43,738 bases of DNA from Atractiella rhizophila (taxonomy: Eukaryota). The translations under genes were made by a program, and so were the position numbers. The stretch lies in contig MU271566.1 of assembly GCA_021432655.1 (NCBI GenBank), forward strand, positions 1 to 43,738, written 5' to 3'. Below the pieces are notes generated by a model. It did no database searches and had not been told where the DNA came from. It saw only the letters and a list, made by a program, of their open reading frames with translations. Within the stretch, counting starts at the first letter, position 1; every line of letters starts with the position of its first letter. Of this stretch, positions 7,781 through 41,600 are shown in pieces.

Positions 7781-7966
7781 CTCCACTAGATCGTCCGGAG
7801 TGAATTCAACAGGAAAAGCCACTGTGATCTGCAGCGTCGCAGGTGATGGATGAAGGCTGGATATGAAAGAGGGGAGAATGGAGAGCCCCAGCGAGTGGCA
7901 CCGTCCTGGGGTGATAACATTGACAAGTCCGCTGGAGTTTTGTGGCTCAGAATCCTGCTTAATTGT

Positions 7967-9604: not shown

Positions 9605-10045
9605 TGTTAGGGCTGACACTATGTGCGGTCGCCGACGGGCGATGCGTCTGTAGTGGAGGTAAACCTAAGAGAATACTCTGAGGTCACCACCACTACATCT
9701 CAATGTATATATACATATGTAAAGGCACTGCCATAAACTGTAACATACGTTTCTTGAAACATGTAAGACAACTAGATCAGGAAAGTAATAAAGGGAATAC
9801 TCGGAAGTAAAACATACTAAGCAGTACAAGTGAGAAAGTATAATAAGGCAATAACGGAGACGGTGCAGACCGGCGAAACGTATAAGGTTTGCTGAGCGGT
9901 GATTCGTGTGAGATAAGGGAAAACAGCGGTCAGTGCAAACATGAGCAAAGCGGCGTTGGGTAGGTACGTGATTCTACGGCATGGTAAAGTAGGTCATGTG
10001 ACTGTAGGTGGTGCATTTCGGTAATGCATAGGGGCAAGCCTGATA
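9605..10045 (-). repeat. Gypsy 3' LTR (type A)
   Basis: TGTTAGGG...CCTGATA, adjacent to the PPT at 10046-10055. Ten differences from 17877-18317. Confidence 0.95.
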
Positions 10046-10170
10046 ACAACCCCCAAATTTCTGACTAGTGTACGTGAGTCACGGAATTTTAAGGTTAAGG
10101 TTTGCGGCTAGCTTGGGCGAAAAATTCTTCCAGTTCTACCACCATCACCTTCCCCTTTATTCTTGCAAAA

Positions 10171-11882: not shown

Positions 11883-12371
11883 AATGTATGTTTTGCGTCT
11901 CCGTATCGGCGGCAAATTCCCGGTCGGCGACATGTGTAGATTGCGTCATAGTGGCATAAGCGTTGTGGTGAGTGGGGAGAACATTGGCACAGTAGGTGAT
12001 GCAGGACTCACACTCCCCTGTCTAGGGGAGGACCCTCAGGCGTTCCTCCCACTAGCTACCCAAGCTTATTATGGAGCTCGCAACCACATAGGCCTGGGCC
12101 ACGCGCTGGTGGACACAACGTGCAGTATAACGTGTCGGCGGTTTACATGCTCGTCGCCAGTCTGTCTTCTTTGTGGGGTAGTGTGTTGTCGAGCAAACAA
12201 AGATGGGAAACCAAAGGATAAAAAGTAAAAAATAGAACACCATAAATATCAAACCAAGACAAGGTGTGAGATGAAAGGGAGCATTGTGTACCTCGCAATT
12301 GAGGAATTTTCGGGTTTTGACCGGTGTTGTTTTGGTGCAATAAGCAACCATTTTGCGAAAATGGGGTGAGT

Positions 12372-12730
12372 GACTCACCAACAAACTGGTCGCCGATCTG
12401 TCCGTTGAGGAACAGACCGGCACCTCACTTAGACCTATGTTCAACAGTGTGACTAGGGATTCACCCAGTGAGGCATATAGAGGAGTAGGACCTCTTAAAG
12501 TGAGGGGGAGGGGACCTCACGATTGAGGGCAATTTTCATAAATGCGACATTGGTGATGGTGCGAGAACGCAATGAGCATTCGTCTACAACGGGCGACGAA
12601 TGGACTCACCAACGACCAAGTCGCCAACTTGCCCGTTGAGGAGCAAGTCGGCACCTTGCCTTGACCTAAGTATCAAAGACTAGGATTTCACCCGGCAAGG
12701 CATATAGGGGTGTTGGACCCCTTAAAGTGA
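12372..12730. repeat. Degenerate ~130-bp direct repeat in Gypsy 3' UTR (12372-12503 and 12603-12730)
   Basis: Both copies read GACTCACCAAC...CCGTTGAGGA...GACTAGG..TTCACCC..GGCATATAG...CTTAAAGTGA. Confidence 0.8.
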
Positions 12731-15700: not shown

Positions 15701-16371
15701 AGGTCGATGGCATGGTCCCAAGGTCGTCGAGGAGGAAGCGATGTTTTGAATTTTTCATCGTTGAAAATGTCTGCAAAATCGGTGATTTGCATCGGTATTT
15801 CGACAATGTTCTTTGGTCTCATTGCCGCTGCGTCTTTCGCCAGTTTCTGCGATTTCGTCATGGCGGCTCGTATCGAGGTGGACGATGACTGGAAGCATTC
15901 GCGAGTGGTAGACACGTCATCTGCATTGTAACTGGTAGGGCAACGAGAGAACTCAACTTTCCCTGAGTCCCAGTTTATCTCTGGGTTGTGGTGTCTGAGC
16001 CAGTCATGACCCAGAATCATGTCGACAGTCCCCAACTCCGCCACAGCGAATTGCCAAACTTCGTGGTGAGTGGCGATCGAAATGGGCAAGTAAGCAACAG
16101 AATGAACAGACCCCCTCTTGATTGAGAGATCCGTCAATGTTGTAAACGGATACTGGGGAAGGAAGTTGAGTGACAGGCAGGTTGTATGCGGAAACAAGTT
16201 TTGGGGAGATAAAGGAAGTGGTGGCCCCACTGTTAAAGAGCGCCGATGTGGCGTGTCGGCGATGGGAATGTGGATGATGGAATGTGGTTCTGAGCTTCGG
16301 CTTCGAACTGACAAGGGATGCTGTTGTCGAGCGTAAATGGACTTTGTCATACATTTTTGCAACTTCTGCAC
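12722..16371 (-). pseudogene. Gypsy pol (protease, RT, RNase H, integrase, chromodomain), frameshifted
   Basis: ALFNSGAT (PR, D>N); FSKIDLRKGF and YINDILI (RT, D>N); RNYDTYDKEMLAI and TDHKNL (RH); HDSQIAGHPG and AYHPQSDGQTER (INT); EEWEVEKIVD..YKGYSPSEDEW (chromodomain). Confidence 0.95.
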
Positions 16372-16559
16372 ATCTCTGTCTCCAGGAGGGAAAATGCAAT
16401 TTCGGGAATGGAGAGTCTTGCTCAGATGAGGGGAATACTGTGCTGAGCGGCGTTTTGTTGGAAGTGATTTTGGATGACGTAAATGAATTGCAAGTCGGCG
16501 ATGGGGACACTTCTTTCACCCACTGCCGTCCTAAAAATCCTCTTCTAGATCACCTGATT

Positions 16560-17837
16560 GGCTAATACTCATTTTCAGCGATTGGTCGGCGCTTTGCGCA
16601 AATTGTCGATCTTGGTGTTTCATTTTTGAATCGAAATATTCTCCTTGGGCTCAGAGATATTGCTCCTTGTTCATGGATGTCCTACACTCCCTTTCTCGGT
16701 GGCCCATCTTCTGGCATCGCCTGCAACGGGGAGGTCTCGATTTTGTCGCATCGACCTCCATGTCATCGGGGTCTTTGATTCTGTGAGCGTGCGTAGCGGC
16801 GTTTGGTGATGAATCGGTGATCGTTGACAAAGCGGCGCTCGGTCGATACGCTATGGGTGTTCTGCTCTGCCTGTGTTTTGTTGATTTTGAGCTGTCTTTT
16901 CTGGTAGAAAACGTATTCTGGGGGCCGTCCTTCGTCGATGGGATGTTTTGAAAGAAAGTTGAATGGGCAGTTTCTTCTGCATCAATTCGTCGAGCCTTTT
17001 CTTTCCATTCTTCCAGCGATTTTGGGAACTCCCCTTGGGTTACTTTGAGATGTAGTGTAGGATTGAGTCCTCGTTTGAAGAAGAAAGTGAGAGCTTCATC
17101 ATCAAAGTCAGCCTGATTTGCTAGTTCTTCAAATTTGATGATGTAGGTTTCTAGGTTCCCCTTTGTTGGAGAGAAGATATTTTTGTTTGTGCAATGAGTT
17201 TGTGGTCTGTCTTACAGAAACGCGATTTGAACTCCGACAAAATTGTTCCCACGAAATTTGTTCCTCGTTTTCGACAAGTCGGCGCAAAATCCCAGCGGCG
17301 AATTTTCCGCATATCCTTCTTTCATGTAAGAAAGGGTAAATAGGATTTTCGATTTTTTGGTCGGAAATTGGCCTGGAACAGTAGAAGTGTAGACGTAAAT
17401 TTCGCGTAAAAATGTCGGAGCTGTGTTGGGTACTCCTTTGAAGATTACAGGTGTGGCAAGTTTGATACCTGCATATGGTGCAACTTGGGGAGTTTGGGAT
17501 ATAGAGGGGGGAGAGAAAGCTTGAGGTGTTGGGTCCGTTCGCGATAAAAAGGGGAAGTGGTTCCACTATCTCTAGGAGGGGGTAGTCTGGAATCTAGCAA
17601 TTGTAAAATTCGGTCATTTGTGTTTTGGACGTCGGACCTCAGTTGCGCAATTTCGTGCGCATTTTGGGAGGTTTGCGCATTTTGTTGGTTGAAACTTGTT
17701 ATGAGGTCTTGTTCGATTTTTTTGGATTGCTTTTCAGTCATGAGATATAGAGTTTGGAACATCCTTTCTAAGTGTTGGATGCATTCCTCGCTCGTCGGCA
17801 GTTCGCGCGTTTCCATGTCTCCCCAAACCTCCGACAT
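16560..17837 (-). pseudogene. Gypsy gag, degenerate
   Basis: Minus-strand ORF fragments between the 5' LTR and the protease, with a coiled-coil-like N-terminus (MSEVWGDMETRELP...) and an FFKRGLNP motif. Confidence 0.75.
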
Positions 17838-17864
17838 TTTTAAGTTTCGTTTTTGAAAGGGAAG

Positions 17865-17874
17865 AGAGTATCCT
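17865..17874 (-). promoter_or_regulatory. Non-tRNA primer-binding site, probable self-priming (Tf1-type)
   Basis: No TGG after the 5' LTR. Minus-strand AGGATACTCT is complementary (one G:U pair) to AGAGTATTCT at 17951-17942 in the LTR, 34 nt after the start of TATATATA. Confidence 0.55.
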
Positions 17875-17876
17875 TC

Positions 17877-18317
17877 TGTTAGGGCTGACACTATGTGCGG
17901 TCGCCGACGGGCGATGCGTCTGTAGTGGAGGTAAACCTAAGAGAATACTCTGAGGTCACCACCACTACATCTCAATGTATATATACATATGTAAAGGCAC
18001 TGCCATAAACTGTAACATACGTTTCTTGAAACATGTAAGACAACTAGATCAGGAAAGTAATAAAGGGAATACTCGGAAGTAAAACATACTAAGCAGTACA
18101 AGTGAGAAAGTATAATAAGGCAATAACGGAGACGGTGCAGACCGGCGAAACGTATAAGGTTTGCTGAGCGGCGATTCGTGTGAGATAAGGGAAAACGGCG
18201 GTCAGTGCAAACGTGAGCAAAGCGGCGTTGGGTAGGTACGTGATTCTACGGCGTGGTAAAGTAGGTCACGTGACTTCAGGTGGTGCATTTCGGTAATGCG
18301 TAGGGGCAAGTCTGACA
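17877..18317 (-). repeat. Gypsy 5' LTR (type A)
   Basis: TGTTAGGG...TCTGACA, 441 bp, followed by the TSD. Confidence 0.97.
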
Positions 18318-18322
18318 ATTGG

Positions 18323-20801
18323 GGTCCACAAATCCTTGCGGCTGCTGTATACTTCCTCTTTCAGATCCCCATGAAGAAACGCATTGCTGATATCAAATTG
18401 TGCCAACGCCCATCGTCGTGATGCAGCAAGGGAAAGGACGGTGCGAACAGAGGACATACGAATGGTAGGAGCATACGTCTCCTTGAAATCCTGCCCTGGC
18501 ACCTGTCTTTCACCTCTAGCAACAAGCTTTGCTTTATACTTGACGATATTGCTATCTAAGTCCCTCTTTATCAGCAAAACCCACTTACATCCAATTGCAC
18601 GCTTTCCATGTGGTAAGTCAACCAATTCATCTTCCCAAGTCCCCATGGCACAAAGAGCCGCCATTTCCGCTTGGATTACAGTCCACCATTCATCCGCGTT
18701 TGGCCCTCCTCACTTGTTTAAATGTAGGTTCATCTAGATTCCCATTCCATCCTACTCCTGTTGCAAATACTTCCCATCCAGTTACAACAATCCTATTATC
18801 CATGAGAGCTAACTGGTTTGAAGCCCTTAGAGCTACATTCATTTCCTTCACAGAAACTGATGCATTGAAGTCTCGTAATCCTGGCTGGAAATGTGTGTTG
18901 AGGTGGAAAGCCAAAATGTGTCAGAATGAGAGAGGGGTTTCACTGTATGTGCTTGAGGGTGTTTCAGATCGGACCTATCCCTGTGAGCACTGTCAGATTG
19001 TGGGAGCCCACTGTTCAAAGCGTGATAATTGACCCTAGGAATATTCCGTCTGTCGACAAAGGCAGTGGGTAAGGATTAGGAGAATGATTGGGAACCCTCT
19101 TTTGGGGAGTACGAGTCCATGGGAGGGCGTCCTGACCTTCATTACTGGCGGAAAGCTTCTCCTGCTCGCTGTTATCGTCGCACCCATCCAGCTGCCCTGC
19201 AGGTAAGATGTGCATCCTTGTGAGAGAAGGCGATCTAGTGGGTGGTTCAGGGTTAAGTTGCACATTTGTCATCGTCATGGGAGGAGGTATTATCGCATCA
19301 GTGTCTGGTACCCGAACAGGCATATTGTCAGCAAGATAGTCAAAATCTGAAGGCATGAACTCGTTCAGTGACCAACTGGTCAACTGGTCAATTTTACTGT
19401 CTCCTGCTCCCCCCTGTCTCTGTAGAACTGATCTTCAAACCACTGCACCTCCTTAGATTCCACAACATGTGTCTGTCCCGGAATCCAGAATAACCATCCC
19501 TTCTTTTCTTCCAGGCATCCAACAAAGTAACCCAGGATTCCTCTTGCATGCAATTTCGAGACCTTTTTCTTCTTAGGGATATATATAACTGCAAGACATC
19601 CAAAAGTGTAGAGGTGTGACACATCTGGTACTTTTCCAGCCCAGGATGATTCTGGGCATTTCCATGATCCATGCAAGAACGTCAGAAGATGATTAAGAGT
19701 ATAGACCGTGAACTGCACTGCTTTCTCCCAAAAAGATAAAGGTAAACCTGATTAAAACAAAATTGTTCGTGCAACATCAAACAAAGTATACCACCATCTT
19801 TCAATAAATCCCATCTGATTATGAATATAAGGAATTGAGGTCTCATGAGATAGACCAATTGCCATGTATGCTCCTTCCATTGTGTGAGCTTTCGGAACGT
19901 ATCATCTCATCTTCTCTCTCATCCGATTTCACTAAGTGTTCCTCGATCATGGCAACTTGCTAGTTCTATGACGCGCAACACGCCTTGTCAACACCAGCAA
20001 CCACCACTCACTTCACGCGTCTCTTATTCCTTTATTTGTTCGTGCAACATCAAACAAAGTATACCACCATCTTTCAATAAATCCCATCTGATTATGAATA
20101 TAAGGAATTGAGGTCTCATGAGATAGACCATTTGACAAATGAAAGATTTGAATTGTACAGATTGAAATTCTCTGCCATTGTCGCTTTGGACAATCTTCAC
20201 CTTGACATCATAGCGTCGCTCAGTCTCCAAAATCCAGTTCTTCAGAACCATCGCAGCCTCAAATTTGGCTCGAAAGGGAATCCACCATAGTCTGGCTGTG
20301 GACTCCTTGATGATCCCGAGACCATACCACACACCAGAATGCATTGACGCAACTGGGGCAGGTCCCCACAAATCACAGTCTATCCGTTCACCTTTCGTGT
20401 ACGAAGGCGACTTAGTGACTATCCGACTTGGACATGCTTTCGATTTTCCAGCCACACATGATGTGCATGGATTCAACTTTGTCGAATTGTAATCAAAGCC
20501 CGTCACCCACTTTCCAGGACACAATTCCCTCCACCGTTGGCCCCATGTGGCCAAAACATGTGTGCCAGGTTTGAGCAGTTGTAGCTGCATAAGCAGAGAT
20601 GGGAATATGAGTTGTGTACTCCTTCACAGTAAGAAAGGGGGACTTTTGCCCATCCCAAAGTGCAGGCCATTCTCGCGTCGGAAGAGGAGACGATTTCGCG
20701 AGTGTTTGTCACTCGTTTCATCAAGTCGAGTTGTGAGATTAAAGTCACACCGAGACCCGGGACTTAAAGGCCAGTCCCAAAGTCCGCCTACCTGATGTTG
20801 C
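18323..20801 (-). pseudogene. Copia pol 5' part (protease end, GAG-pre-integrase, integrase, RT N-terminus)
   Basis: VPGLGVTLIS, CTSCVAGK, QSDNGREF and CKWVLLIK motifs; disrupted by an insertion at 19858-20035. Confidence 0.9.
19763..20130. repeat. 95-bp exact direct duplication of Copia integrase (19763-19857 = 20036-20130) bracketing a 178-bp foreign insert
   Basis: Direct sequence comparison. Confidence 0.95.
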
Positions 20802-21638
20802 TGTTAGGGCTGACACTATGTGCGGTCGCCGACAGGCGATGCGTCTGTAGTGGAGATAAACCTAAGAGCATGATATGACATGAAGACTAACCTGTAGTGG
20901 AGATAAACCTAAGAGAATACTCTAAGGTCACCTCCACTACTCTCCGATCTATATATACAAGCGGAATAGCACTGCCACAGAGTGTAGAGGAGAGGAGATG
21001 AAACATGTGAGAGAACTAAAAGGGGGAAGTGACAGTGGGATTATGCGGAGTTAATAAGAGGAGAATAGATACAAATGAGCTAAGTGATGACGCAGGCGCA
21101 AATGGGCGAACGGGCGCTGATTTGCACTGCGTGCAAATAGGCGATGCGAGATGCAGAGTGGCGACCGGGTGCCGATTCGCAGGGAACGCAAATGGGCGAT
21201 AGGAGACACAATCTGGCGAACAGGCGCCGATTTGCGTAAGATGCAAACCTGACAACACCCCCCAATTTCCGTGGTGCATGCTGCAGACAGAAACTTCTGT
21301 TTCGTGAGGTTTGCCGATTTTGCGAAAGTGTCTAAAGTACCAGCTCACAATTTGAGGAATTTTCAAAGTTGACCAGGTGTTGTTTTGGTGTAATAAGTGT
21401 CCATCCTGCGAAAATGGGCTGGACAACTCACCAACAAACCGGTTGCCGATCTGTCCGTTCAGGAACAGACCAGCGCCTCTCCTAGATCTATGTTCAACAA
21501 TGCGACTAGGGATTCGCCCGGCAAGGCGTGCAGAGGAGTAGGCTCTTTTAAAGTGAGGAGGAGGGGACCTCGTGATTGAGGGCAATTTTCATAAATGCGA
21601 AATTAGTGATGGTGCAAGAACGCAATGAGCATTCGTCT
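20802..21638 (-). mobile_element. Truncated sister Gypsy: type-B 3' LTR (20802-21254), PPT and 3' UTR block
   Basis: Same TGTTAGGGCTGACACTATG end as type A but a different U3. PPT at 21255-21263. 21337-21638 is homologous to 12287-12585. Confidence 0.88.
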
Positions 21639-23396: not shown

Positions 23397-25839
23397 CTTA
23401 AGTCGCATCATAGTCCCCATCGCGAGGTTACTGTCACTCTAGGCTGATTGTTGTTTGATATCGTTTGTAGTTTCATTAGCATTAAATGCTCTTAGTCGTT
23501 CTAAACTCATTACAATGTGTCAGCGTTTAACTTCATTTCTACATTGTTGCTTCAAGCCAAATTTCTTCTCAGCCATCATGCCGGGACGCATATGTCGGAA
23601 CGTCTCGTAGACAAACCGGACCTTTTGCACCAAAAAGCATCAACACAAGGTCCAAATTCAAGATGTCAAGGAACCGTCTTCAAATTCTCCTATTCTTTCC
23701 CAGCTTTAGTTTCCGAGCTCAAATGAACAGAGGGCCTCATTTCAACTGTCAAAGTAACATTCAAGTGTTTAACCAATCCATAGCATTTAACTGTAACCAA
23801 GATCACAAAGACAACTTGAAGGAAAGTATGGGAGAGAATTCAAACCAATCCCTCATCATGGCTGCACTGCTGAGCGACCATAATCGAAAGTAAATGATGT
23901 GTATGGACGTTGCGACATTGCACATGAGAGAGACGGTGCACACTGATAACGGCGTAGGGATATGGATATCTGTGATTGCAATGGCTGCATTCAAAATATG
24001 GATGGCAGCGAAGATAAGATGTAGCTGGTAAATGGCGGCTAGACAGACCGGACTGGAAAATATTAGGCAAGAAAGGCATGACTAAATTGGGAGGCTGTTA
24101 GTACTGTTACAACCGAAAAACGCATAACAAACAACAGTTTACACAATGCAGTCTGAGAGGCCGCTGCTCCCAACATTGCGCTTGAGCTAGCACTAGGGTG
24201 ATTGCGTCCTGAACCACTGGTCTATTGGTCCATTGCAACCCATTGGCCATGGAAGGCACCAGACATTGTCACCGCAACGAATTGCACCATGATACGCACA
24301 TACTTTGCTCCAGCTCCACCAGTATAGAACACACCCTTTTAATTTCACCACCATCAAATGTTTAAATATATTCTTCCTGTGAATCAAATTTGAAGGCAAT
24401 AGAACTCGAACTGGCAGCTCCAAGTCTCACAAGATTGCTTGAAGGAATCAAACATCGAAGCATGACAGCAGTTATGATATGGTGCATGGGGAAATAATTG
24501 AGAGACAAACACTGAATAAAAAGTACCCAAGTCTTGTAACGATTGCCGCAATAGTGCTTAGACTCTTGTCATTATCGTTTCACAATTTTTATGTTTTTAA
24601 TTCGCACAGGTGTTTGACGTCAACAAAACGACGACCCCTCCCCATTACGATCCTCTCCCATTCCTTCCTCTCTTGATTTTCCCTCTAATGCCAGTGTGAC
24701 TCCGCGATGAAGCTGGTAGGAAGCGAACTTTATCTCAAAATCCTGGTTGGATAGGATGAAGTTGTCTCTGTAGGTGAGCAGCTGTGTGAAGATTGTCTGG
24801 CTAGTAGGAGGCGGAGTATGCAATGGAGAAGACGTGGTACTATGGGCTGTGGTGCAGGAATGAAGCAAAAAGGTGAGGTCTGAGTTTTGGGAATGGGTGG
24901 CAAACAAAGCCATATTACCAACGCGTGAAACTCGCTGAAGTTTGCCACATCTTAGGCATGTATGTATTTCCGACTTCTAATTTCTCTGCTAACAAAAGAT
25001 ATATATTGTGGCAAGAGAAATGAAATGGATGTTCAATGTCTTTGAGTGCGATTCCACATATCCGCAAGTTCTCTACCAAATTCACAGAGCTTGACCGTGA
25101 GCGAATCTCCCTATTGTCACGAAGGTACCAGCTGTAATGGCTCCTTTCTAGATGCCTTGGAGCGTTCCTAAATGAATAGCCTAGCAGTTCGTGCCTTACC
25201 TCTTATCTTTCACATTATAATCCAACGTCCTCACTGGGGATTTCTTCTTAATTATATCGAAGAACTGTATCCTGTATCATTTCTTCAGCGGTTCGAGTTC
25301 TTTCTACAATATCAGGTCATCAGTGTAGGCACTTATGTTGGTTCACGTTGGTTGCAGAATTCGTTCCTGTCAATAGTTCTCCAATAATCTCTTTGTATGA
25401 CCAAAAGGATCTTGCTCACTCGAGTTATCTAGTATAGCTTCACAGAACGACTGTTGCTACTTGCCTCGTCAGTCTCATTTACAACCTTTCAGGCTGAGCT
25501 GAATTTGACTAGGACTTCGGAGACGAAGCTTACGATTTCATGTGTAAGTAACATCTTTGTTGGTTTCACATAGTTCTAGTAACGCCTCCTCGTAGAAATG
25601 GATCATGTTCCACACCGTTAATATGGAACGTGAGCCTCCCGGTCCACTCGTCAGCCTTTTTAACCAAAGGCATTAGGCGTGTCATCGTAATGGGATAGGT
25701 CAGAGCCATGAGATGAGAGGACATGTTGAAGGAATGGGGAAGGCAAGTGGGTCTGAAAATGTTGGGCTTCGACGAAGTGTGTTGTGCTCCGTTTTTTCTT
25801 CTGAGGTGAAAATCTGACTCGAAGGTGTCACCAGTCGAA

Positions 25840-26630
25840 GCTTTAGGCGCCGCCAATCCCTTTCCTCACATCCCTCCGAAGCCAGAAGATATGGTCTCCA
25901 TCTGCTACACATCCGGAACGACCGGTACCCCAAAAGGCGCAATCCTCACGCATGCCAGCATCACCTCTGTGGTTCTTGGAAACCTGCAGTTCGTCGTGCT
26001 TTTGTACTAGATGGATCATGACTTCACAATCGTGTTCGTTACAGCGGCGGCATAATCACTGCTGAGGACGTTGCGCTCAGTTTCCTCCCTCTCTCCCGCA
26101 TCTATGAACAGTTCATCGAGGAGTTCACAATGTGTGAGTCCCTCATCTTTCATCCCTGCCCTGAATCTTCAGCTGAGGCGACACGCAGGTATTGGGCAAA
26201 GCCATTGCTTTTGTTTCCTGCCCAATCCTCCCTAGATGTCCGCTCGTACACTCCGGCTCGTCAAGGACATGCAGATCCTGGGTCCTACCGTTTTGGTCGG
26301 CATGCCTCGTATCTTGAACCAGTTGTATCAGGCTGTCAGGTACGTCGCCTTCCATCAGAGGTTGGTTGCAGTTGCTGATTTGGACACAGTTTCAAACCCT
26401 GGAAGCACCAGGCGTCAAAGGTAAGCATCCCAAAATAGAGATATCATGAATCTAAAGAACGTACCAGGCAAACTCCTGAACCACATTATCGATACGAAAA
26501 TTCACAACCTGCGAACCTACAACCTTCCATTTCCCTTGCCCACAGGTCCCCTCCGACATAATACTGATCCTCACAGCAGACGAACAGGTGCGCTGTCGCT
26601 TCCCTACCTTGCACTTCTAACACTTGATTA
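25840..26630 (+). pseudogene. Internal fragment of long-chain fatty acyl-CoA synthetase (AMP-binding family), introns retained
   Basis: ICYTSGTTGTPKGAILTH, SFLPLSRIYE and LVKDMQILGPTVLVGMPRILNQLY. N- and C-terminal parts absent; frameshifted. Confidence 0.85.
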
Positions 26631-27231
26631 GCCGTCTATTGTCATTAATTCCCCGCTATTGTCGACCTAACTCGAATGACAACTCGAACGACCACTCGCA
26701 TCCCCTCCGCTCGGCTCCTGACATCTCCACGACAGTTGGTAACAATGGGACGTTGTGCAGACCACTGGTGGCTGGAGGAAAGCAGTAGATGGGAAATTGT
26801 GAAGGGGATGCGATGCGAGGCAGAAGGAGGACGTAAGGAACAGGAGGAGCAACAGGGAGAGAAACAGGCTGTAGTAAACGTGGTATACAAAAATTCAAGC
26901 GATTTAAACCAAATCTGAATCTGCTGGTGCCAACTTGGAGTCGAATGTTGAAGAAATTATCAGACCTTGAAAATTGTTATTTCGGATCTCATGCTGTCGC
27001 TTCACGGTTATTATATAATCTTACAACTGTTTCCTAGTAGCAACAATCTTTGTTCAAGCATTGTCGAGCCATAAAAGCATTGCCAAGACGTGCTTACTTG
27101 GCCATCACTCGCTGATGATTAATACATTATCTCTCAGAATGGTTGAAGTATGGTTTTTTCATTGCCCAAATACTGTCAATCCCAGACAATGGTGCTTGGT
27201 CGACGTCGATGATTTTCACGGTTGGCAGCGG

Positions 27232-27270
27232 TTGGACCAGGATCTCAAAAAGAGCCCTGTTCCGGCTAGG
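27232..27270. mobile_element. Second copy of the CMC-like right terminus
   Basis: TTGGACCAGGATCTCAAAAAGAGCCCTGTTCCGGCTAGG versus TTGGACAAGAATCCTGAAAAGGGACCCTGTTCCGGCTAGG at 5840-5879; last 16 bp identical. Confidence 0.6.
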
Positions 27271-27635
27271 TCATGATTCGTGACATTCCCCTTCAGGACA
27301 AAGTCATGTCCAGCAACATTCACCTCTTTTCGGTTGATTTCACAAAGTGACTGCCAAACATGTCAGATCAGACAAATGACACAGGAAAGGGCACACCTGC
27401 AAATCTTTCCTCCTCAACGAGCGCAAGGTCGCACCAACATCCACTTGACCTTTGAAGAATATGAAATTACGTGAGGAAACTATGAAACTAACGCACTAAG
27501 GTCCAGGTGGTTTGGCATGGATTCTAATAGCATATCAGTAAACTTCTGCTTGTGACCACTGTGGATCCCTTGGCCCTACAAGTACAGCGTAGGCACCATT
27601 TAGCACGACAAAAGAATGTCAGGGTTAGAGGAAAC

Positions 27636-28265
27636 ATGCCTGTGCTGGAGTTAATTCAAACTATCTGTCATTGGTTGATCGAGCCGCCTCAGCCAGGTAT
27701 GTTTCCATCACTGGATTAAGAGGTTCCAGCTTTTGTTCCATTCCAGCTCTTCTAGCAAACCCTGCAAGGAGAGAAAGAAGGTGGCACAGTTTCCAATAAC
27801 CTTCCAACTGTTCATAACCAGTTTCCACTGAATCCTTCGCAGGAGGTCCCGGAACCAGGTTGTTGCGCGAGTGTAAACAGTCGGTAGCTCAACGACAGTG
27901 TGGAGCAGCTTTGTGGTGTCGGAGGCTCGCGAACTAGGTAAATGATTCGGGAAAACAAGCAATCAATTTGAAATGGATTGGAATAGAGAGTTTTGGAGGG
28001 ATGGATAGAATGCTGCATGAGAACAATGTCATTGTTGTTTGGGTTAATGACAAAGTGGCATACGGGTGAGACTCTCGACTGTTGATATTGTAGCGTCAGT
28101 AGGGAGATACATCGCACAACTAGATATACTGCACACCAGTGGCTGAAACGTAAACAGATTCTTCGGTAGGCAGCTGACTGTCCTCTTGTTCAGATGGAGC
28201 TGACGTTCAGATTGTTCCAAGATTCGACAAATTGGAATTGTCATATCTTTCACGTAAGGAGGTAA
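27636..28265 (+). pseudogene. Possible small spliced gene of unknown function
   Basis: Coding-like segments MPVLELIQTICHWL, MDRMLHENNVIVVWVNDK and YTAHQWLKRKQILR*AADCPLVQMELTFRLF, with GTATGT/GTGAG donors. Confidence 0.25.
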
Positions 28266-28287
28266 TCTGAGAGCTATTTTGTTGGAT

Positions 28288-30415
28288 TCAATTAGTGATC
28301 TGCTTCAGCCGATCATGGACTTGAAGGAGGTTGCAGTACTGATTGCTGGAACAATCATGGCGGGTCAAGAATTCGTCGGCGGTTTGGGGTAAATTCCCAA
28401 GTCCAAACCTCATCCAGGAACGGCGATTAGTAATGGTTGCAGTTGAGATGCCCATGACAGCATGAACCTCGCTCCCAATTCCATACTGACCATGATTTGA
28501 GGATCTGTGAGCGAGAAGCCTGAGGCTGCCTTCTGTAGTTATAACGATTCATCCTCAGGACAGCGCACACACACGTTGGAAGTCAATGGTGTAAAGGCCA
28601 TTTGTCATCAAATACCGGACATGTTGGAGCGACTCAAGATAAATGGTGGCATCAGATGGAGGGGGGGATTATGCCTTTCGAATTATGGAGCATTTTGCTT
28701 CTGTTGCTATTGAGAAGCGGTTCTACGAATAGGTAATGCTCATAACGACTTAAGTGGACTGTCATGATGGCACCTTTCACGAAAGAGAAGGAGGTGAGGT
28801 TGTGAAACTTTGCTGGTAGTAAACATTTGTCGGCAGCATGGCACGCACATTTTCTGACAGAAGTGAATCCGCCCATATGAGATTGAGCGCATCGCAAACA
28901 ATCTGTTGATACTCTTCTCCAGGCGAAAGAGCACGAAGGCCATCAAACGTGTTTTTGCTGTCGGACAGCTTTCTTCACTGCTACATCCAATTTCCAGCGC
29001 TTTCCGTTCCTCTCAAATAGAAATAACCCTTTATGAGCCACACGAAAGCTGCCACGCTCTAGCTCCTGATCAAAGTTGATTATTAAGCGAACCTGAGATT
29101 CAACGGATGGGAGATTGGTAAGTGAAGGTGTTCCTGGGCTAAGGGCATGTGGAACCAATTCTTCAATTGGAAGCGGAAGAAGGGAGGTGACATTGACGGC
29201 GTAGATGGCCTGGTTTTCATAGGTAACTGCTGACATGGAGAGAGAAGGTATTTGCAGCTGTTCTGCATTGATGGCCAAACGAATATCATTTTGAAGGTTG
29301 AACACAGGGAGGAGACACTTGTTAGCAGTGACTGTAGTGGTGAGATCAAGCAGGGTGTGTGTTCAAGTTTTAGGAAGGTGCTTGACAGAGGGGTCGGCCA
29401 ACACTTGATTCGCATTGGCAAGAGGGATTATGAAAGATGGCAGCAGAGAAGAAGTCGGCCATTCTTGTGCAAGTTGTCCATCTGCCTCATTTTGGTGTGT
29501 TAAAGAAAGTGAAGGAGGTAATAGTGGGTTTGAGGATCTGCATTTGAATTTCCAACGAAAGAGAGCCCATGACGTGATGGCTCATCTTGGACATCAATCC
29601 GCATACTGTGACAAACGAGAAAGCGTCTGAGGTGGGGGTAGGAAGTCTGACAGGCAATTCAGAACAATCTTGAGCATTATCATGACCGGCTTCCTGTTCG
29701 TCTGCAGAGCTTGTAGCTGTAGTGTTCCACTCACTGAGAAAAGTGTCCATTAGCCTTCCATTACGAACATTCTCCCAGGACTCCAACTTGATCAACACAA
29801 TAAGGCTGATTGACGCACCGTCTTTTGGTCCACCAGGATTTCAGATAGCAGCCAAAACTTACCTTCACTTCTCCTCACATTATTCTCTTGGGCTACGCAT
29901 CGCAACATATCTGAGACATGTGGAAGTGGAGAGGGTACAGTTCCTGCAGGATGAAGACCCGCTGAGATTGTGATGAGGTCATCCTTGTCACGGAGGTGGA
30001 GCGAGATTGTGGTTGCAGGCCTGTGTCGTAGAATGGTGCTGTTGAGCAATCAAAATATTCAAAGCTGACTAGCGCTGGCATTCTACTTACCAAGTGTGTG
30101 AGCCCCAATAATTGGACCAGTTACAGCGTGTGGATGACAACTTTGACAAAGAGCTCGGCTTCCTATTGAAAAGTTAACATTAAATCATGATGGGTTCAAC
30201 AATATGATGAGATAAATTGTACCACTTTCTTGATAGCGAGCTGATTTGTGGTCGTAATAATAAAAACAGTCCAAGCAGTAACGAGTCTCCATTGACTTAT
30301 TGGTCTGTTTGTCGACGACTGTGACAACTTTCGTGGGGGTCAAAGGAATCTTGTTAAGCGTTGAAGGGCACAGTGTTCCGTCTTTCGTCCTCTGTTTACT
30401 AGTGCAGTAGACCAT
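28288..30415 (-). pseudogene. Alpha-kinase (eEF2K/MHCK-like) family protein with Cys-rich N-terminus, frameshifted
   Basis: GSFRVAHKG..VAVK, LFVEPLL..KMLHNS, LQHVRYLMTNG..IDFQ, LTDPQIM, FGLGN and H-DCSSNQYC, in alpha-kinase subdomain order across frameshifts and introns. Confidence 0.82.
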
Positions 30416-30698
30416 GCAACTTCATCCTCAGTGGCGATTATCTGAAGTAGGGGAGGTATAGCTTAAGTTGGGGATTCGTAAGGCTCTCCTCAACGAGCTC
30501 CATCTAATATTTAAGGACCAGTACAGTGGAGGGTTAACATTACCTGCCAAGTATGATCTGACCACCTGTTATAAAGACATGCACCTTTCTAGCAATATCC
30601 GATTTTTCCAGTATCCACCAGAATATGAACCTAATGAGGTTATATCTGTCTGTATTCATTGTCAGTGTCTTGATCCACTGATGATATGGGCTACCAAT

Positions 30699-32310
30699 AT
30701 GGGAATTTACGTCAGGTTATTTATCATTCTGCTTCTGTGTAATCTGAATGCTTCAGATAGCCCCTGTCATTCAGGGATCTATTGCTCGAAGCTTGCAGAA
30801 CGGAATGAACGCAACAAGCTATGCTGGACAAAGTCAACTGGGGGGTTGAAGCAAAAGAGGTGAGCAAACCATTAGGTATACCTTCAGTACCATCTTAACT
30901 CAAAGTTATGATGGTAGGCTGATGTTGTTGCAACTAGTCTTGCCAGTGTGAAGAAATGGCAAAAGATCTGGGATTGTCAGAGCTCCAGAGCATCGAAATA
31001 TAAGACAGTGGAAGCATCAAAGATGCCACAGACCTGATCAAGAAATCTTATCCAACTCCTGGCCAAAGCCACTTACAAGCCCTGCTCAAGCGTGAGGGTA
31101 TTGAAACCTCACAGTAAGTATCTTCCCCAATTACATTGTTTATCTAACAACTGGTTCGCTGCCAGCAGAGTGGTCACTAACGTTTACAATAGGGTTTATG
31201 ATTCTGGCTTCAGTAGCTGCCAGCCCAGGAAGAATGTATTCAAACGCAAAACTTACAGGGTAACCGGGCTCAATGACCACTGGGCTTTCAACCAACACGA
31301 TAAAGTGAGGGTGGCGCTTTCAACTCCTGTTTTGTATGCTGAAGTGGTTGCATTTTAGTGGGGACCACAGTTTGGGATATGGTTGCATGTTTGCCTTGAT
31401 GGATGGTTGGGAAGAGTACTCTGGGCACAAGTATGGTGGACAAACTCAATATTACTTGGATGCTGTTCGTGAAAATAGGCATCGTAAGTCGATTCTCAGT
31501 TTATTAAATATTTGTTTACTAAATTTCAAACATCAGGACCACCTTGTGTTACCCAATCTGACTTTGGGAATGAGAATCACGGGCCAGCGAATGCTCATAC
31601 CCTGTTACAACAGTTAATAGAACCGCAACTCCCTGAAATTATTGTGCATCGATGGTGTCCTGATAAGAAAAACATCAAGTCCGAACAATGGTGGTCTGGG
31701 ATGTGTTGATCGTGGGGTCCTAAGTATGAGAATTTGATGCAGGATGGAGTGAACTGTGGGTGGTATGACAAATGCTCTCAGCTTGATGTGTTCGTACTAT
31801 TCTATTCACCTCCCCAACCCTTCTTAGATATTATCTGACTTAACGCATTGCTACCATTGATGCAGTTTAGCTTCCTGCTATGTCTTTATCCCATTCCTTC
31901 AAATAAAATTATACGACTATGCTTTCATCTTTCTCAACAACTACTCCAAATGATATGATTGATATCGCAAGCTTCCTCAAGGAGGTACCCCAAATACCAT
32001 GAACAGAGAGCCTCAAAAGTTCAATGGTGAGGACTATGCGGTATGTCCCCTCTTCTTCAGCCAATGCATTGCATGTAACCCCTCAGTCACAGATCCAAGT
32101 CACCAAAGAGCAAGTCAATGATGTTGAAACTGTCATTTCCCCCAGTGATCATCTAATATTTGATCTCGCCCCATACGAATACAGAAACATGTTTGCTGCA
32201 GTGGTAGAGGAACAGAAGATTGTTCCAACTCAGTTGACTGTAGATAATGTATGAGCAGCATACTTACGTATGCAAGTGGGGGGATGTGCGTTGTTAGAAT
32301 GATGACTGAA
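30699..32310 (+). pseudogene. IS3EU-like / integrase-core DDE transposase with N-terminal HTH-like region, multi-intron, inactivated
   Basis: FKRKTYRVTGLNDHWAFNQHDK / WGPQFGIWLHVCLDGWLGRVLW, PCVTQSDFGNEN, KNIKSEQWW and VFIPFLQ. First catalytic D appears as N; several TGA stops. Confidence 0.8.
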
Positions 32311-35300
32311 ATGTAGACCCTTGGTGATGGAGACTTCCACACGTAGGAGATTGAGATTGCTACTGAGGTTTGTGTCTCTTGAATCACATCATGTATCCTA
32401 TATTCAACTACAGTCCTAGAAACTCACAATTCCTGCTCTAACCAGCTTCCACAAGATGCATCTTTCTGACGATGCTCTCCTCAGCCCTGACTTGCCACTG
32501 CCTAATTTCAACATTGTGGATGAACATGGCAATCAGATATTCAATTTCCGTGATATAAGGGCCATTTAGGGAGACCAGCATGAGACAATCGATATTCCTG
32601 CATGTCAGAAGGCAAAGCACTCTTCAGGGATGATGGAATAGATGCCATTTGGGATGCGAGTTTTTTTAGAGGATGGGAAGGAAGGGATGGTACATTGTGA
32701 AGATGATACAGATACCTAAGTTCGTGAAGGATGTATCAAAGATGAGAACTTCAGCAGTATAGCTAATTGATTGGAATAATGATATGATGATCAAGCGAAT
32801 ATAATCTTCATTTCAATGAACAGTAATATGTCTTATGCTAAGTATGATCAATCAAGCTGTGGGAATGTCCCTACTACAATTTCGTCGGCTGCATGCAGCA
32901 ACGATAAATTGTTTCAATCCAAGCTTTGGCAGTCCAACAAATGTCTGACATTGTAAGCATTATCAAATCACTCAGGCTATTGTACAACGGAGCCTCAGAT
33001 AGTTATCTCCTCGTTATGGCGGGAAATCCACAGCAGGATCACAATCATTCTTCCTCAAACTCTTGCTAATTTCGCACTATAACCTGTACATTAGATTCGA
33101 ATAGATGTATTTAGCACATGGACAGCTTTGCAAGCTATCTGGAGAAAGTGCGAGTGATGTAGTGTGAACTTGCCATCCAGCTGGCTGATAATGGTGAAGA
33201 GTACATCAGCTCACCAGTCAGGGCTCCGGAACATATTAATCAGAACTTGAGCTCGATCTTCCTCTCCCTCTCCCTCCTTTCTGAGCCCAAACCTGGCTGT
33301 TTGTATCATTTGAGTGGAAAAGCAGGAAGAGACACGCGGCACGGCCAATTTGTGCTGTCGATACAACAGACTGATCTATAACTAATATGTGTTTGTTACT
33401 TAAGAGGTAATTTGTGCATGCTCTGGTTTGTTCATCGTCTCCTGGTACTGTTTTTACCCTGGTTAAACAACTGTTTCGTTCTCCTACGACGTTTCTTCTT
33501 AACACTTTGCTTCTTGCTGGCTAAGCTGGTGAATGCTTGGAGCAATCATGCGAGGTGCAAGAAGGCCTAAGGCGAATCATACAATCAGAATTTGGGTATT
33601 TTTTTGATAAATTTTCCGCTCATATTGTAATACATTGTAAGGTAAGCTCCATATTTTGGTCAGTGTTGCAAGCTTTCAATTTGACATTTTAGGACTCAGC
33701 TCTATGGAAAATCCCGGTTATTTATTCCATCGTACACACAGACATGGAGGGCAACTTTAGGACGGTCAATTCAACCTTGTATCTTATGTTGGATGGATTC
33801 ATGGCTCAAGGATGTTCCCCCTCTTCAGCCAGAGCATCTCGATCTTGGCTCGCAGTCTCTGATCCCCTGAATGTATGAAAATCCAACAATAATGTGTCAA
33901 GTTTGATAATCACTCATAACAAGAAACGTTAATGAATGCTGCTTTCTTATTCCTTAGTTCGTACTCAGCTACCTTACAGCTAGAATGTTCTTCGGTCATG
34001 ATGTAACTCCATATCAGACAATGTCCAAGTTGTTAACTGTGATTTCACATCTCATGGCAATAAACTTATTTGCATTCCACTTTCCACCAATGCATCCTCA
34101 TTTTTACCAAGCCAGAGCTACAAACATATATTAACACTTGGCTCCTGGCCGCCTATCTTATTGGATCCAGTGTGATCCAGAGGAGGCCTGTTGCTGATTC
34201 AACATCAAGGTCGGCATGCACGCTGTATCTTCTGATGTCCATCCAATTTCTTCAAATACCCCCATTCTCCCACTTGGTCAGCAACAACCCCTTGATGCGT
34301 GGACGATTACCTCAGTCAAATGTGAGTACCCTATCCCACGAATGGTCTAGCTTGACTGGAATGGATGGTGAGGAGTAAGCGAAGTTGGGGTGGGGAAGAA
34401 CGAGTGATACGATGGGAGGACGACGAGATGGGAGGAGGAGTGGTGATTGGAGGTGTAGGTGGATCAACAAGCGGTGTGGACCACATTTGGTATGATTCAT
34501 GAGGAATGTACGCAGTGGAGAACGGGTCCACACCGCCAGGACTATAGCAACAAGGTCAGGACATTGCACTACAACCTCCAAACCTACTTGGGTATCAAAA
34601 TTTGCTCCATCCTATTTCTCCAAGACGGAATTTAAGAGACTGTCATGGAACTCAACCATCCTCGATGGACAGAAATAAAGCACAGCCATGTTCCAGCTGG
34701 TCCGGTGGATGGATGGAAGAGTGGAGAGGAGGTGAAGCAGGATGAACTAGAAGGGGTTCAAGTTGATGTTCTGGTGCCTCAGCAACATAAATCAACTCAA
34801 TTATCCAGGTCCTTTCACAGGTATTGTACAAATTGGAGCCAGACCGCGGTCATCGCACGACGACAAAAATGTGCAGAAAATTCCCATAGCCCAGCAAACC
34901 TCCATAGCAGCCAAACAACAAGTGTGTGAGCGGCTTATGCTGAATCCCAATGTGTGCAAGTGGCGACTTCGGCTGACAATCGAAATGTAGGAAAAGGAGG
35001 CTCGAGCGACTCAAAGTTTATGCAGTCTCTTCGCTCTTACATTTGGCTCTCTCAAAAGCAAGCTAAATTGATTCTTTTGGAAATGGGCGAGCAGAGCAGA
35101 CTGCTAGCTGCTTACGTGGGCTGAGCTCTTGCAAATGCATGAGCACCAGCAATGGAATTCTATGTGCTTATATAGTTTTCAGGTAGTGGCAGCTAGAAAG
35201 TGACAGAACGTTCAAGAAGAATAAAGGCACATAGCGAGACTGAAATCTAACAGATTCTCATCTCCTTGACGTTCACCAGCTGAGCCGATCTTGAGTTCAT

Positions 35301-35699: not shown

Positions 35700-37891
35700 G
35701 GACACTTTTTAAAGTAATATCACAAGTGAGCAGAAATTGACAGTACTTTTTAGCGTCTCTGAGCACTGCTGCTGAATTTAAGGATCATGAGGGAGCCTTT
35801 TTGGCATTGTTTCCAAAGGCTCCAACAGTCGTTACTGGGATTCCCTTGAGAACGACATCCCTGATCCCATTGAACTCTTCTTTATGGCCACAAAGAGAGG
35901 CACAAGGGTTAGGCCATGTTTGAGTGTAGCACTTGGCCTTATCGCTCATGCTTGGTACAGAATGATGAGCGAACTCGCAGCTGAGAAATGATTAGACACG
36001 TACTCCTTATCGGGATTTTGCAATAGAAGAGGATTCATGGCGTTGGGTCTCCTAGTAAGCTTTTGGCAGTCGGTCGAACAACACCATCTTTCTTCTCCCA
36101 CTTCCGCACTAAGTTAGCACTGAACCGCCAAAACGCAGTGGCACTCCCTTATTGATAGAATGGTCCTTTATTTCATAAGGGACTGTCGTTCAGTCTTCAA
36201 GACCCCGATATGACGTCAAAGCTGTTGCTGTGAGCTACTGCCTTTGGCAAGGGCTTGATTGCTTGTCCATAGAGACACCAGGCAAGAAATAAACGAGTCT
36301 TTCCCCCTTAATCCGGAGTGGTTTTGGTTGTGCCATTAATACCAAATCCTCTGGCAAATGAACTTGGCAGCATTAATCTTGACAGCAGGAACCATGTCGT
36401 CAAAATCCTTGTCAACATTCGTGCTCGTAATGTGGAACTTCCACTGCGGGTTGATGAAAGGAGTCATATATGTTGCCTAAGCAGCATTTGATCACATTGA
36501 TATTCCTTAAGAGACCAATGCACACACAAAGGTGTCGTAATGCTCTTGGCCTTGACATAACTGGTGGGTCCAATTGTTGCTGTCGCAATGTTTTCAGCGC
36601 TTGTGGGAACCTGCCAACGAATTCCTGCATGGCTGGCATTGCATACTTCTCTGCCATATCACCATAAGCCATTGGAGACACGTCCTTGTTGCCCGTTTGG
36701 GGAGTGGCCTGATGCTGGGGTGTGGTGTACCAGTGCGGAAAGGGAGACACTAGGGTCAGGGTGGATAGTAGCTGGCGGAGTAGCTGGGACGTTGTCAGAC
36801 ATCCTTGTTGTTTCTCTGCTTGTACTAGTTGTTTGTGGACCTAACCCTAAATGGTCTTCTAGCAGTATTCTCAAGCCAGGCATCAGGTCAGAAGATGTTG
36901 GCTGGAATTATGTCGGCTGCCAATAGCCTTTGTCATCAGTTGACATTTTTGAGTCACTTTTCTTGTGGCGGTTGGTGCCTCCTGCTAGGGATGCACAACA
37001 GGGCATGACGGGTCCTGAACCCGTACTTCGTTCCCGTCTTTTTTGGCGTGCGTGGAGCTCAGTAAACATGTCTCGAACCGCACACATTTTTGGCGGGATG
37101 GGAAGACGTGGGGCAGACATCAAGGAGTGTTCCCATCTTCGTAGGCCAACACGTCTCCTAACATGGCTCCAGATTTCTATAGCTGTGCAATTTATGTAGG
37201 ATCTTTTAGTCAACCAGGTGTCAGGCTTGCCTCTACGCACTACCGAAACGCACCATCTGAAGTCACGTGACCTACTTTACCATGCCATAGGATCACGTGC
37301 ATGTCCATCGCCGCTTTGCTCACGTTCGCGCTGATCGCTGCCATCCCCTGTCTCACACGAACCGCCGCTCAGCAAACCTTAAACATTTCGCCGGTCTGCA
37401 CCGTCTCCATTATTGCTTTATTGTCCTTTCTCACTTGTACTGCTCAGTATGTCTTATTTCCGAGTTTTTCCTTTATTGCTTTCCTGATCTAGCTATCTTA
37501 CATGTTTCAAGAAACTTATGATACAGTTTATGGCAGTGCTTTTACATATGTATATATACATCGAGATGTAGTGGTGGTGACCTAAGAGTATTCTCTTAGG
37601 TTTACCTCCACTACAGGTTAGTCTCCTCATGCCATACTATTCTCTTAGGTTTACCTCCACTACAGACGCATCGCCCATCGGCGACCGCACATAGTGTCAG
37701 CCCTAATACCAGGCCAGGTCGGCTGGCTCATCAAGAACAAGAAGTCGGAGGTTCCTTTGTGCACCTGGTGCCTGTCCAATGTAAGGCCAGAATCTTGTTC
37801 TGACTAGTCTCGCCTCAGTCGCTCCAGTGCTCCATTCAAGTGTTGATCCCAAAGTGTCGATAGAAGGCAGCAAACCATCTTCCTCCGACAA
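35700..37891 (-). pseudogene. Degenerate gene of unknown function, interrupted by a solo LTR
   Basis: Removing the LTR and one TSD joins ...LDEPADLAW to LTKRSYINCTAIEIW... in frame. Further coding-like fragments continue to ~35700. Confidence 0.4.
37219..37708 (+). repeat. Solo Gypsy LTR (type-A U3), TSD CCAGG
   Basis: Reverse-complement homolog of 17877-18317. CCAGG at 37214-37218 and 37709-37713. Confidence 0.95.
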
Positions 37892-39573: not shown

Positions 39574-40104
39574 TGTTAGGGCTGACACTATGTGTGGTCG
39601 CCGACGGGCGATGCGTCTGTAGTGGAGATAAACCTACGTGCATGATATGACATGAAGACTAACCTGTAGTGGAGATAAACCTAAGAGAATACTCTAAGGT
39701 CACCTCCACTACTCTCTGATCTATATATACAAGCGGAACAACACTGTAGAGGAGAGCAGATGAAACATGTAAGAGAACCATAAGGGGAAGTGACAGTGGG
39801 ATTACGCGGAGTTAATAAGAGGAGGATAGGTACAGTTGGGCTAAGTGGTGATGTAGGTGCAAATGGGCGAACGGGAGACGCAGTGGTGACGGGCGTCGAT
39901 TCGCAGGGAACGCAAATGGGCGATAGGAGACGCGACGGGGCGCAGAGTGGCGACGGGGTAGGTAGAATGGGGACGGGTGAACAGGCGCCAGTTCTGTAGA
40001 ATGCAAACAGGTGAATGGGAGCCGATTCACAGGGAATGCAAATGGGTCATAGGAGACACAATCTGGCGAACGGGTGCCAATTTGTGTAAGATGCAAACCT
40101 GACA
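39574..40104 (-). repeat. Solo Gypsy LTR (type B) with internal U3 duplication and non-matching flanks
   Basis: Homologous to 20802-21254; TG...CA ends; flanks AGGGT / TTGTG. Confidence 0.92.
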
Positions 40105-40504: not shown

Positions 40505-41600
40505 TTAATCAGTCTCCATTCTAGCTCTTCCTTCCATCCCCTCTTCCGCTTGCTTTTTCACTGCCTCAACAAAAGTCTGAGCACTGAGGGCAGATTCACC
40601 ACCTAACCCCAAACCCTCGCACATCGGCGCAAGCGCACCTGGCGCGTTGATAAAGGCCATATCAAGACCACGGATTGCTCTCTTCAGCTCGGAGCTTTCC
40701 AGAATGCGACGCACATTTTCTGAAGTGCTGGGAAGGGAGGGAGGTAGAAATGAATATAGAGATTCGACTATAGATTCGTTGAGCGAAAGGGGCGGAGCAA
40801 GGACATCACTAAGGAGTAAGGAAGGAGCAGCACTAGCTGCTGAGGTCCCACGTGCGGAAGCGAGAATGTGTTGCAAGCGCGATAGCTGGTCGGAGGTGAA
40901 TGGGACGTCTCCTCTTGTTTCATCCGAAGATTGTTGTTGAGAGGAAGAGCCGGCAGCATAAGCAGGCGGTTGACTGATAAAGGATTCCGAGGTCATAAAT
41001 TTCGTTCGTCTAACGAAGTACAGAACAAGACGAAAGCTCACTCAGCCATCTCAACATCGACAAACTCCTGCTCAGGATCCTCGATCAACGCGTTTACCCT
41101 CCTCACATTCTGTTCATCCTTCTCCGAGCTCACATCTTGCATCCAGAAAAAGTGTCGCGCGTCCGAAGAAGAGAATTGGAGGACGTAGACACGTGCGCGT
41201 GAGGTGGGAGTGAAAGACGCATCTCCAGGGAAGACTGAATAGGTCAAGCTCCAGTGGCGCTGAGCTTTGAAGAAGATGACTGACCAATGAGATCGTCAAC
41301 AATAGAGGTGGTGAGATCTTTGTAACAAACTGCAGAAGAGTCAGCTGAGTTCTGCGGTGTGCAAATAAATACCTACAATGGAGCAGCCCATCTTGCTGCA
41401 AAGGTGTCAGCGGAAGCCTTTTCTACGACTTTGAAAGAGGGCAAACCTGTTCCAGGAAAATGAGCCTAGCGAGTCACTCAGATCAGTAAATCTGTTTAAA
41501 GGAGAACCAGGGCATACCCCCTTCCCGGCAGGGGATCAACAAAAGCAGTTTCTCCCCTTCTCTCGCATTTCCCAGCCTTGAATTCGAGCAATCTTGACAT
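40505..41600 (-). CDS. RPN13: Proteasomal ubiquitin receptor Rpn13/ADRM1, multi-exon
   Basis: PRU-domain motifs LLEFKAGK, VFPGDASF and RVYVLQFSSSDARHFFWMQD; C-terminal UCH37-binding-like helical domain. Confidence 0.92.

Follow-up and report, generated by a model that had tools for sequence, protein, structure and literature searches.

The closest described relatives of the locus reported here belong to the IS3EU superfamily of cut-and-paste DNA transposons. In the portions of the literature available to us, these elements are recognized by 6-bp target site duplications (TSDs), terminal inverted repeats (TIRs) of >30 bp and ends reading TAYGG..CCRTA (PMC12730594), and TA..TA termini with TSDs that are usually 6 bp are also recorded (PMC10045372). 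The available part of the former source states that characterized (TET+) IS3EU families carry a transposase and an alpha-kinase in opposite orientations, and describes the elements of rusts (Pucciniales) and Tuber as carrying transposase, TET/JBP and alpha-kinase genes (Kojima, 2025; PMC12730594). This was the only paper with both terms that a literature search for IS3EU plus alpha-kinase found. GingerRoot, IS481EU and Ginger elements have integrase-like DDE transposases too, and GingerRoot has 6-bp TSDs and TA..TA termini, however, the accessible passages report no companion kinase for them, the words "kinase" and "exonuclease" having 0 occurrences in the accessible text of PMC10045372. The alpha-kinase family itself, with 79 and 39 copies in two genomes of a comparison table, has been called highly expanded in rusts (PMC4469406), and PF02816 is listed among enriched families (PMC5295586); in the accessible text of both papers the expansion is given without a transposon explanation. 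Here we describe a stretch of Atractiella rhizophila DNA, the complete 43,738-bp scaffold MU271566.1 (hereafter the window), in which the interval between 27.3 and 33.3 kb holds the remains of an IS3EU-type transposase gene and, head-to-head with it, of an alpha-kinase gene. A. rhizophila belongs to Pucciniomycotina, the subphylum of the rusts.

We read this region as the relic, old, inactive and single-copy, of a cut-and-paste DNA transposon of the IS3EU superfamily that bore an alpha-kinase beside its transposase, and put the probability of this reading at about 85%. Compared by description with the rust and Tuber elements, as far as the available text allows, the window copy has the same opposite orientation of transposase and kinase, and its relatives show the 6-bp TSDs, the long TIRs and the TAYGG..CCRTA ends; unlike those elements it is dead, has lost its ends, and no TET/JBP gene is seen in the spacer of ~270 bp between its two genes. 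The first-pass annotation of the window had proposed an IS3EU-type transposon with a head-to-head alpha-kinase, and the homology of both gene relics bears this out. It had also taken the element for a new lineage, departing from described IS3EU elements which it held to pair the transposase with a YqaJ-like exonuclease. As kinase-carrying IS3EU elements are already present in the available part of PMC12730594, the pairing is known and the window copy is a further, dead case. The YqaJ-like exonuclease has 0 occurrences in the accessible text of PMC10045372 and PMC12730594, and a literature search returned no paper containing both YqaJ and IS3EU.

The transposase relic (PF24764 rva_4-like, DDE type) lies at 30686..32266 on the (+) strand and has likely introns, in-frame stops and at least one frameshift in its catalytic core. 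Its read-through at 31038-31709 (+), with X written at stops, matches two proteins: P0002 (E 3.5e-36, 46% identity), a 510-amino acid (aa) model encoded on a different contig of this organism, and P0003 (E 7.3e-17), which comes from Lentinus brumalis and is 469 aa long. In Pfam, P0003 scores 29 bits against PF24764 (rva_4, integrase core domain), above the cut-off of 26; P0002 has no Pfam match and looks decayed itself. With P0003 as the query, 331 proteins reached E<=1e-5 among 8000 candidates scored, and the best 120 of these are nearly all named as Agaricomycete proteins, most with PF24764. A tblastn search with 121 integrase-type proteins gave 128 high-scoring segment pairs in the window, all within 30500-32000, and a profile of 28 integrase-type proteins gave nine collinear segments at 30933-32206 (+), the best of which score 61.4, 28.9, 24.8, 18.7 and 16.3 bits. 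The gaps between the segments are compatible with GT..AG introns, and two motifs that are invariant among the 28 aligned proteins, HDK and SDxGxEN, can still be read in the relic. No integrase family was recovered when fragments of the window itself were put through family and structure searches.

Homology to P0002 extends to 32266, and a start resembling the N-terminus of P0002 is found, by reading of the frames, at 30686. The integrase gene drawn at 30699 to ~32310 in the first-pass annotation is a real transposase relic with slightly different limits, and the spacer to the divergent kinase gene (30416..30685, read from sequence and frames) measures ~270 bp instead of 283 bp. P0002 also aligns at 31370-31480 in the wrong reading frame, which points to homology of two decayed copies at the DNA level. 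A second decayed copy is present in the same organism, the P0002 model being read from that frame-shifted copy. The window relic shares 38-46% identity with the PF24764 Agaricomycete proteins along with the two motifs. The annotation treats those proteins as hypothetical host proteins standing alone and gives them no transposon context; the metagenome relatives described next, unlike them, lie inside TIR-bounded elements that carry a kinase.

The relatives come from a metagenome scan with the transposase alignment, in which 562 stretches matched, 339 of them encoding relatives, and 80 fungal loci were kept (referred to by L numbers). The main kinase exon adjoins the transposase in 29 of the 80 and the C-terminal exon alone in three more, so that 32/80 loci have a linked kinase, or 25 groups after near-identical copies are merged; the recurrent linkage foreseen for the element thus holds. 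The other 48 loci mostly have flanks too short for the presence of a kinase to be judged. The clearest kinase-less case is the transposase family of L049 and L058, with no kinase found within 10 kb downstream (L049) or 4.3 kb upstream (L058), and these loci may represent a kinase-less lineage inside one of the transposase clades described below (clade C).

The catalytic motifs of alpha-kinases include a lysine, D-x-Q-G, T-D-P and zinc-binding H/C residues. Seven open reading frames (ORFs) beside the transposase were picked by motif, and five of them pass Pfam Alpha_kinase (L030, L034, L038, L045 and L055); with further passes at L004, L016 and L031 the total is eight ORFs, with scores of 23.8-39.9 bits (cut-off 21.3). 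The kinase ORFs of L011 and L066 do not pass PF02816 at E<=0.001. The K, D-x-Q-G and H-x-C..C columns are invariant in the linked kinases. An AlphaFold2 model of the L038 kinase (predicted local distance difference test score, pLDDT, 68.2) was compared with known structures by Foldseek, and the listed ranks 1-41 are all alpha-kinase domains (MHCK A, ChaK/TRPM7, eEF2K, ALPK1 and Entamoeba proteins), with modest values (E 2.1e-3 to 5e-2, template modeling scores, TM, of 0.31-0.37). In the ESM Atlas, 28/30 feature hits share the single family set PF02816 Alpha_kinase, two further listed hits carry PF02816, and rank 1 is a Basidiomycota cluster (score 0.98). A PDB sequence search with one linked kinase found no alpha-kinase. 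Like the cellular alpha-kinases MHCK A, TRPM7/ChaK, eEF2K and ALPK1, the linked kinases have PF02816, the invariant K, D-x-Q-G and H/C residues and, as far as the model indicates, the same fold; they differ from them in their N-terminal region, in being transposon-borne with no known substrate, and in lacking a sequence-level match to solved alpha-kinases. The transposase-linked kinases are a divergent branch of the alpha-kinase family.

It is through profiles of these kinases, all from other contigs, that the kinase of the window was detected. The main-exon profile was built from five Pfam-passing ORFs, and the profile of the C-terminal exon was seeded from L034 without the window. The latter matches 28291-28548 (-) at E 4.3e-6, first among 1144 window pieces, and three of the four best window matches of the main-exon profile are collinear, on the same strand and within 0.8 kb. 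The relic of the catalytic domain is at 28318..29098 (-), where five collinear segments in shifting frames total 50.2 bits, the next-best chain in the window reaching 13.8, and an LTDPQI piece lies at 28440-28517. By blastp, a window piece matches the exon downstream of the kinase ORF in L034, L001, L011, L025, L046, L035, L066 and L038; single linked kinases used as tblastn queries on the window gave weak matches (best E 0.079). The relic is therefore homologous to proteins that pass PF02816, though its own fragments and read-throughs give no hit to that family. The frame shifts at least four times within a stretch that is one open exon in relatives, and the catalytic pieces IDFQ, LTDPQI and H-D-C..YC are present in three different frames. 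Given these frame changes the gene is dead, and an active enzyme cannot be encoded. The suggestion that the two genes are decayed to a similar degree is roughly true, both being broken, however, the kinase is the more broken of the two.

Upstream of the catalytic domain, the relic of the kinase gene continues through 29099..30415 (-) and begins at 30415 with cysteine-rich sequence (MVYCTSKQ...). The first exon of intact L066, at the corresponding position, is likewise rich in Cys, a resemblance judged by eye only, and the N-terminal half of the gene at 29.1-30.4 kb has no homology to pieces of the 80 loci at E<0.3. The same start at 30415 is used by P0001, a 453-aa annotated hypothetical protein (27300-30415, (-)) which is spliced across the dead kinase into unrelated sequence and has no Pfam family. 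P0001 is a gene-model artefact over a pseudogene.

Several of the relatives are complete, and it is from these that the architecture of the element can be read. One element is represented by two copies, L066 and L076, whose mutual homology stops at TIRs of ~400 bp with TATGG..CCATA ends, and TIRs of 114-321 bp enclose both genes in L004, L011, L016, L025, L030, L031 and L038. Exact 6-bp TSDs flank L066/L076 (GGAAAG and CACATG), L004 (TAAAAT) and L031 (GGCGCT). The termini read TATGG or TACGG in L066, L076, L004, L030 and L031, and TATTG/TAGTG in L038. Copies bounded by TIRs and TSDs were thus found as anticipated, and the relatives are labeled IS3EU because their termini, TSD length and gene content agree with the published hallmarks. 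TET families were absent (Pfam, E<=0.001) from 63 ORFs chosen from the 99 ORFs of >=110 aa in eight complete relatives. Two of the complete IS3EU-type elements hold pieces of other genes, ubiquitin repeats at L030:614-1442 (-) and an HSP70 piece at L031:6830-7360, which suggests capture of host gene fragments.

Four clades are well supported in the transposase tree, and among the known cases gene order is clade-specific: tandem in clade B (8/8), convergent, or tail-to-tail, in clade C (8/8) and head-to-head in clade D (11/11), with four head-to-head cases and one tail-to-tail case in clade A. The kinase tree (25 rows) recovers the four transposase clades with the minimum of 3 label changes, a value as low being seen in 0/200 shuffles. 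Near-copies inflate this clustering, however, among the deep clades the agreement persists. Transposase and kinase thus co-diverge in the co-phylogeny of the two genes that the first-pass annotation had proposed as a check. The breadth of the pairing, the clade-fixed gene order and the co-divergence may all be unpublished.

These data bear on whether the two window relics belong together at all. The scaffold is rich in transposable element (TE) debris, including Gypsy and Copia remains and solo long terminal repeat (LTR)-like sequences, and no TIR or TSD binds the two window genes to each other, so one could imagine a host alpha-kinase pseudogene beside which a transposase fragment happened to land. 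However, the profile that detects the kinase was built solely from kinases adjoining this transposase family, the linkage recurs across the relatives as counted above, and the head-to-head order is the order fixed in clade D and found in most of clade A. Both relics also lie within one single-copy stretch (27331..34899), a single read contig of 7569 bp whose depth is even, at 143.3 and 87.6 in two sequencing runs of one sample (runs which may be the source of the assembly), with multi-copy sequence on either side at a summed depth of 600-3800. Chance neighborhood is accordingly very improbable, and the two genes are better taken as parts of one transposon. Across 27.3-33.3 kb every reading frame is short and broken, and a run search listed no RNA runs containing the stretch.

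Where this transposon began and ended is a separate matter. The first-pass annotation placed its ends at 27497 and 33093 and took three collinear inverted blocks as decayed TIRs. The strings are present (27497-27508 / 33082-33093, 27550-27569 / 33021-33044 and 27591-27600 / 32986-32995), within a left set at 27497..27610 and a right set at 32980..33093. Measured from the left end, the blocks start at distances of 0, 53 and 94 nt, and measured from the right end their partners stop at 0, 49 and 98 nt; TAAGG, on the left, differs from TAYGG by one mismatch, and each end is ~0.8 kb from the nearest gene end, within the range of complete relatives. An anchored 114-nt global alignment of the ends scores 13.5 (78/132 columns identical), a value reached by only 1/2000 random pairs. 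However, this pair of ends was picked after looking, and the figure is offset by the grid and control results: over the real flanks 43/260,400 pairs score >=13.5, with a maximum of 18.5 elsewhere than at the proposed ends, six shuffled controls gave 10-65 such pairs (maxima 15.5-19.0), and a direct-orientation control gave 115 (maximum 18.5). A local alignment of the two 210-220-nt end stretches scores 20, which 59/500 shuffles reach. The right end, CATTA, is two mismatches off CCRTA, and no 6-bp TSD is present at the proposed ends, the flanking hexamers being ACGCAC and GATTCG, although an absent TSD is expected in a relic this old and says little. With the inverted similarity of the TAAGG..CATTA ends at chance level, both block sets are unsupported as TIRs, and it is highly unlikely that the element model was right in such detail.

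For the transposon relic as such, this means that the termini are decayed beyond recognition and the ends are not recoverable. As the relic is single-copy in the reads, there are no close copies from which ends could be read. In neither orientation do the two flanks have a long repeat in common, which means that the relic is not enclosed by long TIRs or LTRs, and no homology was found for the outer parts of the stretch at 27.3-28.3 kb and 32.3-34.9 kb. Overall, of what was claimed for this locus, both gene relics stand and the proposed ends do not.

A number of observations weigh against a kinase-bearing IS3EU relic. Searches that start from the window itself do not reveal a kinase: Pfam Alpha_kinase was found in none of 18 fragments, five read-throughs (X at stops) or the P0001 model, phmmer against PDB with the window kinase fragments gave nothing, and phmmer with the kinase read-through against 1.84 billion representatives recovered nothing beyond P0001 and P0004, an unrelated repeat protein, as did a word-indexed search, the query being 237 aa of which about half is out of frame. 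The kinase segments are individually short (1.7-21.7 bits), and their assignment depends on profiles built from relatives; a profile of 17 linked kinases in turn has no match at E<=1 among solved alpha-kinases. The branch of the window transposase is very long (2.09), and the sequence could not be assigned to a clade. The relatives derive from metagenome contigs whose organisms are unknown, several of them share sampling campaigns and are not independent, and a 6-bp TSD is present in 4/7 of the complete elements examined, with mismatches at L038, L030 and L016. The equation of the PF24764 family with IS3EU was drawn from termini, TSDs and gene content, not from Repbase sequences. In the window, TAYGG..CCRTA pairs with a TSD number three, compared with 2-23 in 30 shuffles, which is not above chance, and with no TIR or TSD above chance the mobility of this copy is deduced from gene content alone.

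The first of these points could also be turned into an explanation of its own, in which only the transposase relic is real and the kinase-like motifs arose by chance, as the negative standard searches and the low scores of single segments would allow. However, chance would then have to account for the first-ranked match of the C-terminal exon profile, the collinear main-exon matches on one strand, a chain far above the next-best in the window, and a position and strand as predicted from relatives. We regard this as extremely improbable. For the kinase gene that the first-pass annotation drew at 30415 to 28288, the start agrees with P0001 and the family assignment holds through the profiles of relatives, however, the direct Alpha_kinase HMM search that it had proposed was negative.

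In intact members of this family, a PF24764 integrase-core DDE transposase and a companion alpha-kinase lie between TIRs beginning TAYGG, and insertion generates 6-bp target duplications. In the window, frameshifts and stops have broken both genes and the termini have decayed, presumably leaving nothing functional. In intact elements the kinase would presumably serve the element and not the host; as a low-confidence guess, its substrate might be the transposase or a host factor of chromatin or translation, whose phosphorylation would allow or time transposition.

In a broader sense, the alpha-kinase could, rather than an occasional passenger, be a core gene of ancient standing in one large IS3EU lineage of fungi, with a role in the life cycle of the element, and much of the kinase expansion of rusts and the many kinases of mushrooms could be transposon copies, a proposal that we advance tentatively, judging the odds to fall a little short of even. 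The first-pass annotation had likewise suggested that such elements might explain alpha-kinase expansions in some fungi, which is plausible. Beyond a passing remark in the accessible text of PMC12730594, no literature statement of the alpha-kinase as an IS3EU core gene behind these expansions was found. If the proposal is true, these genes would be transposon copies as opposed to host signaling genes. A class of fungal gene models named "alpha-kinase" or "integrase core domain" represents the two halves of one transposon, which bears on comparative kinomics and on the counting of gene families in basidiomycetes. When a DNA transposon retains a protein kinase over long evolutionary time, a testable question also arises, namely the substrate of that kinase. 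For the window itself this is of little consequence, the relic being dead and the "hypothetical protein" P0001 better read as a pseudogene artefact.

The multi-copy flanks of the single-copy stretch were located at 25500-27330 and 34852-35185 (summed depth 600-3800, as opposed to 143 within the stretch). Frames in the left flank resemble, by reading only, a fragment of an AMP-binding enzyme at 25810-26378. One contig of the X2 run connects 27317 to 34807, skipping 7489 nt; with a shorter side of only 26 letters and a likeness setting of 80%, it was treated as unreliable and may be a repeat artefact.

Elsewhere on the scaffold, a minus-strand Gypsy-type LTR retrotransposon occupies 9605-18318; its 442-bp LTRs show 97.7% identity, and it has chromo, integrase, RNase H, reverse transcriptase and protease domains. 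Solo LTR-like repeats akin to this element occur near 37219-37616, 20800-21200 and 39574-39931, and Copia-type pieces lie at 18269-20623. Very long open frames without a Pfam family (E<=0.001) lie at 450-3188 (+), of 570+342 aa with one stop between, and at 6326-8131 (-), of 602 aa. The only clear host gene seen on the scaffold is that of the proteasome subunit Rpn13, at 40508-41295 (-), with Pru and UCH-binding domains.

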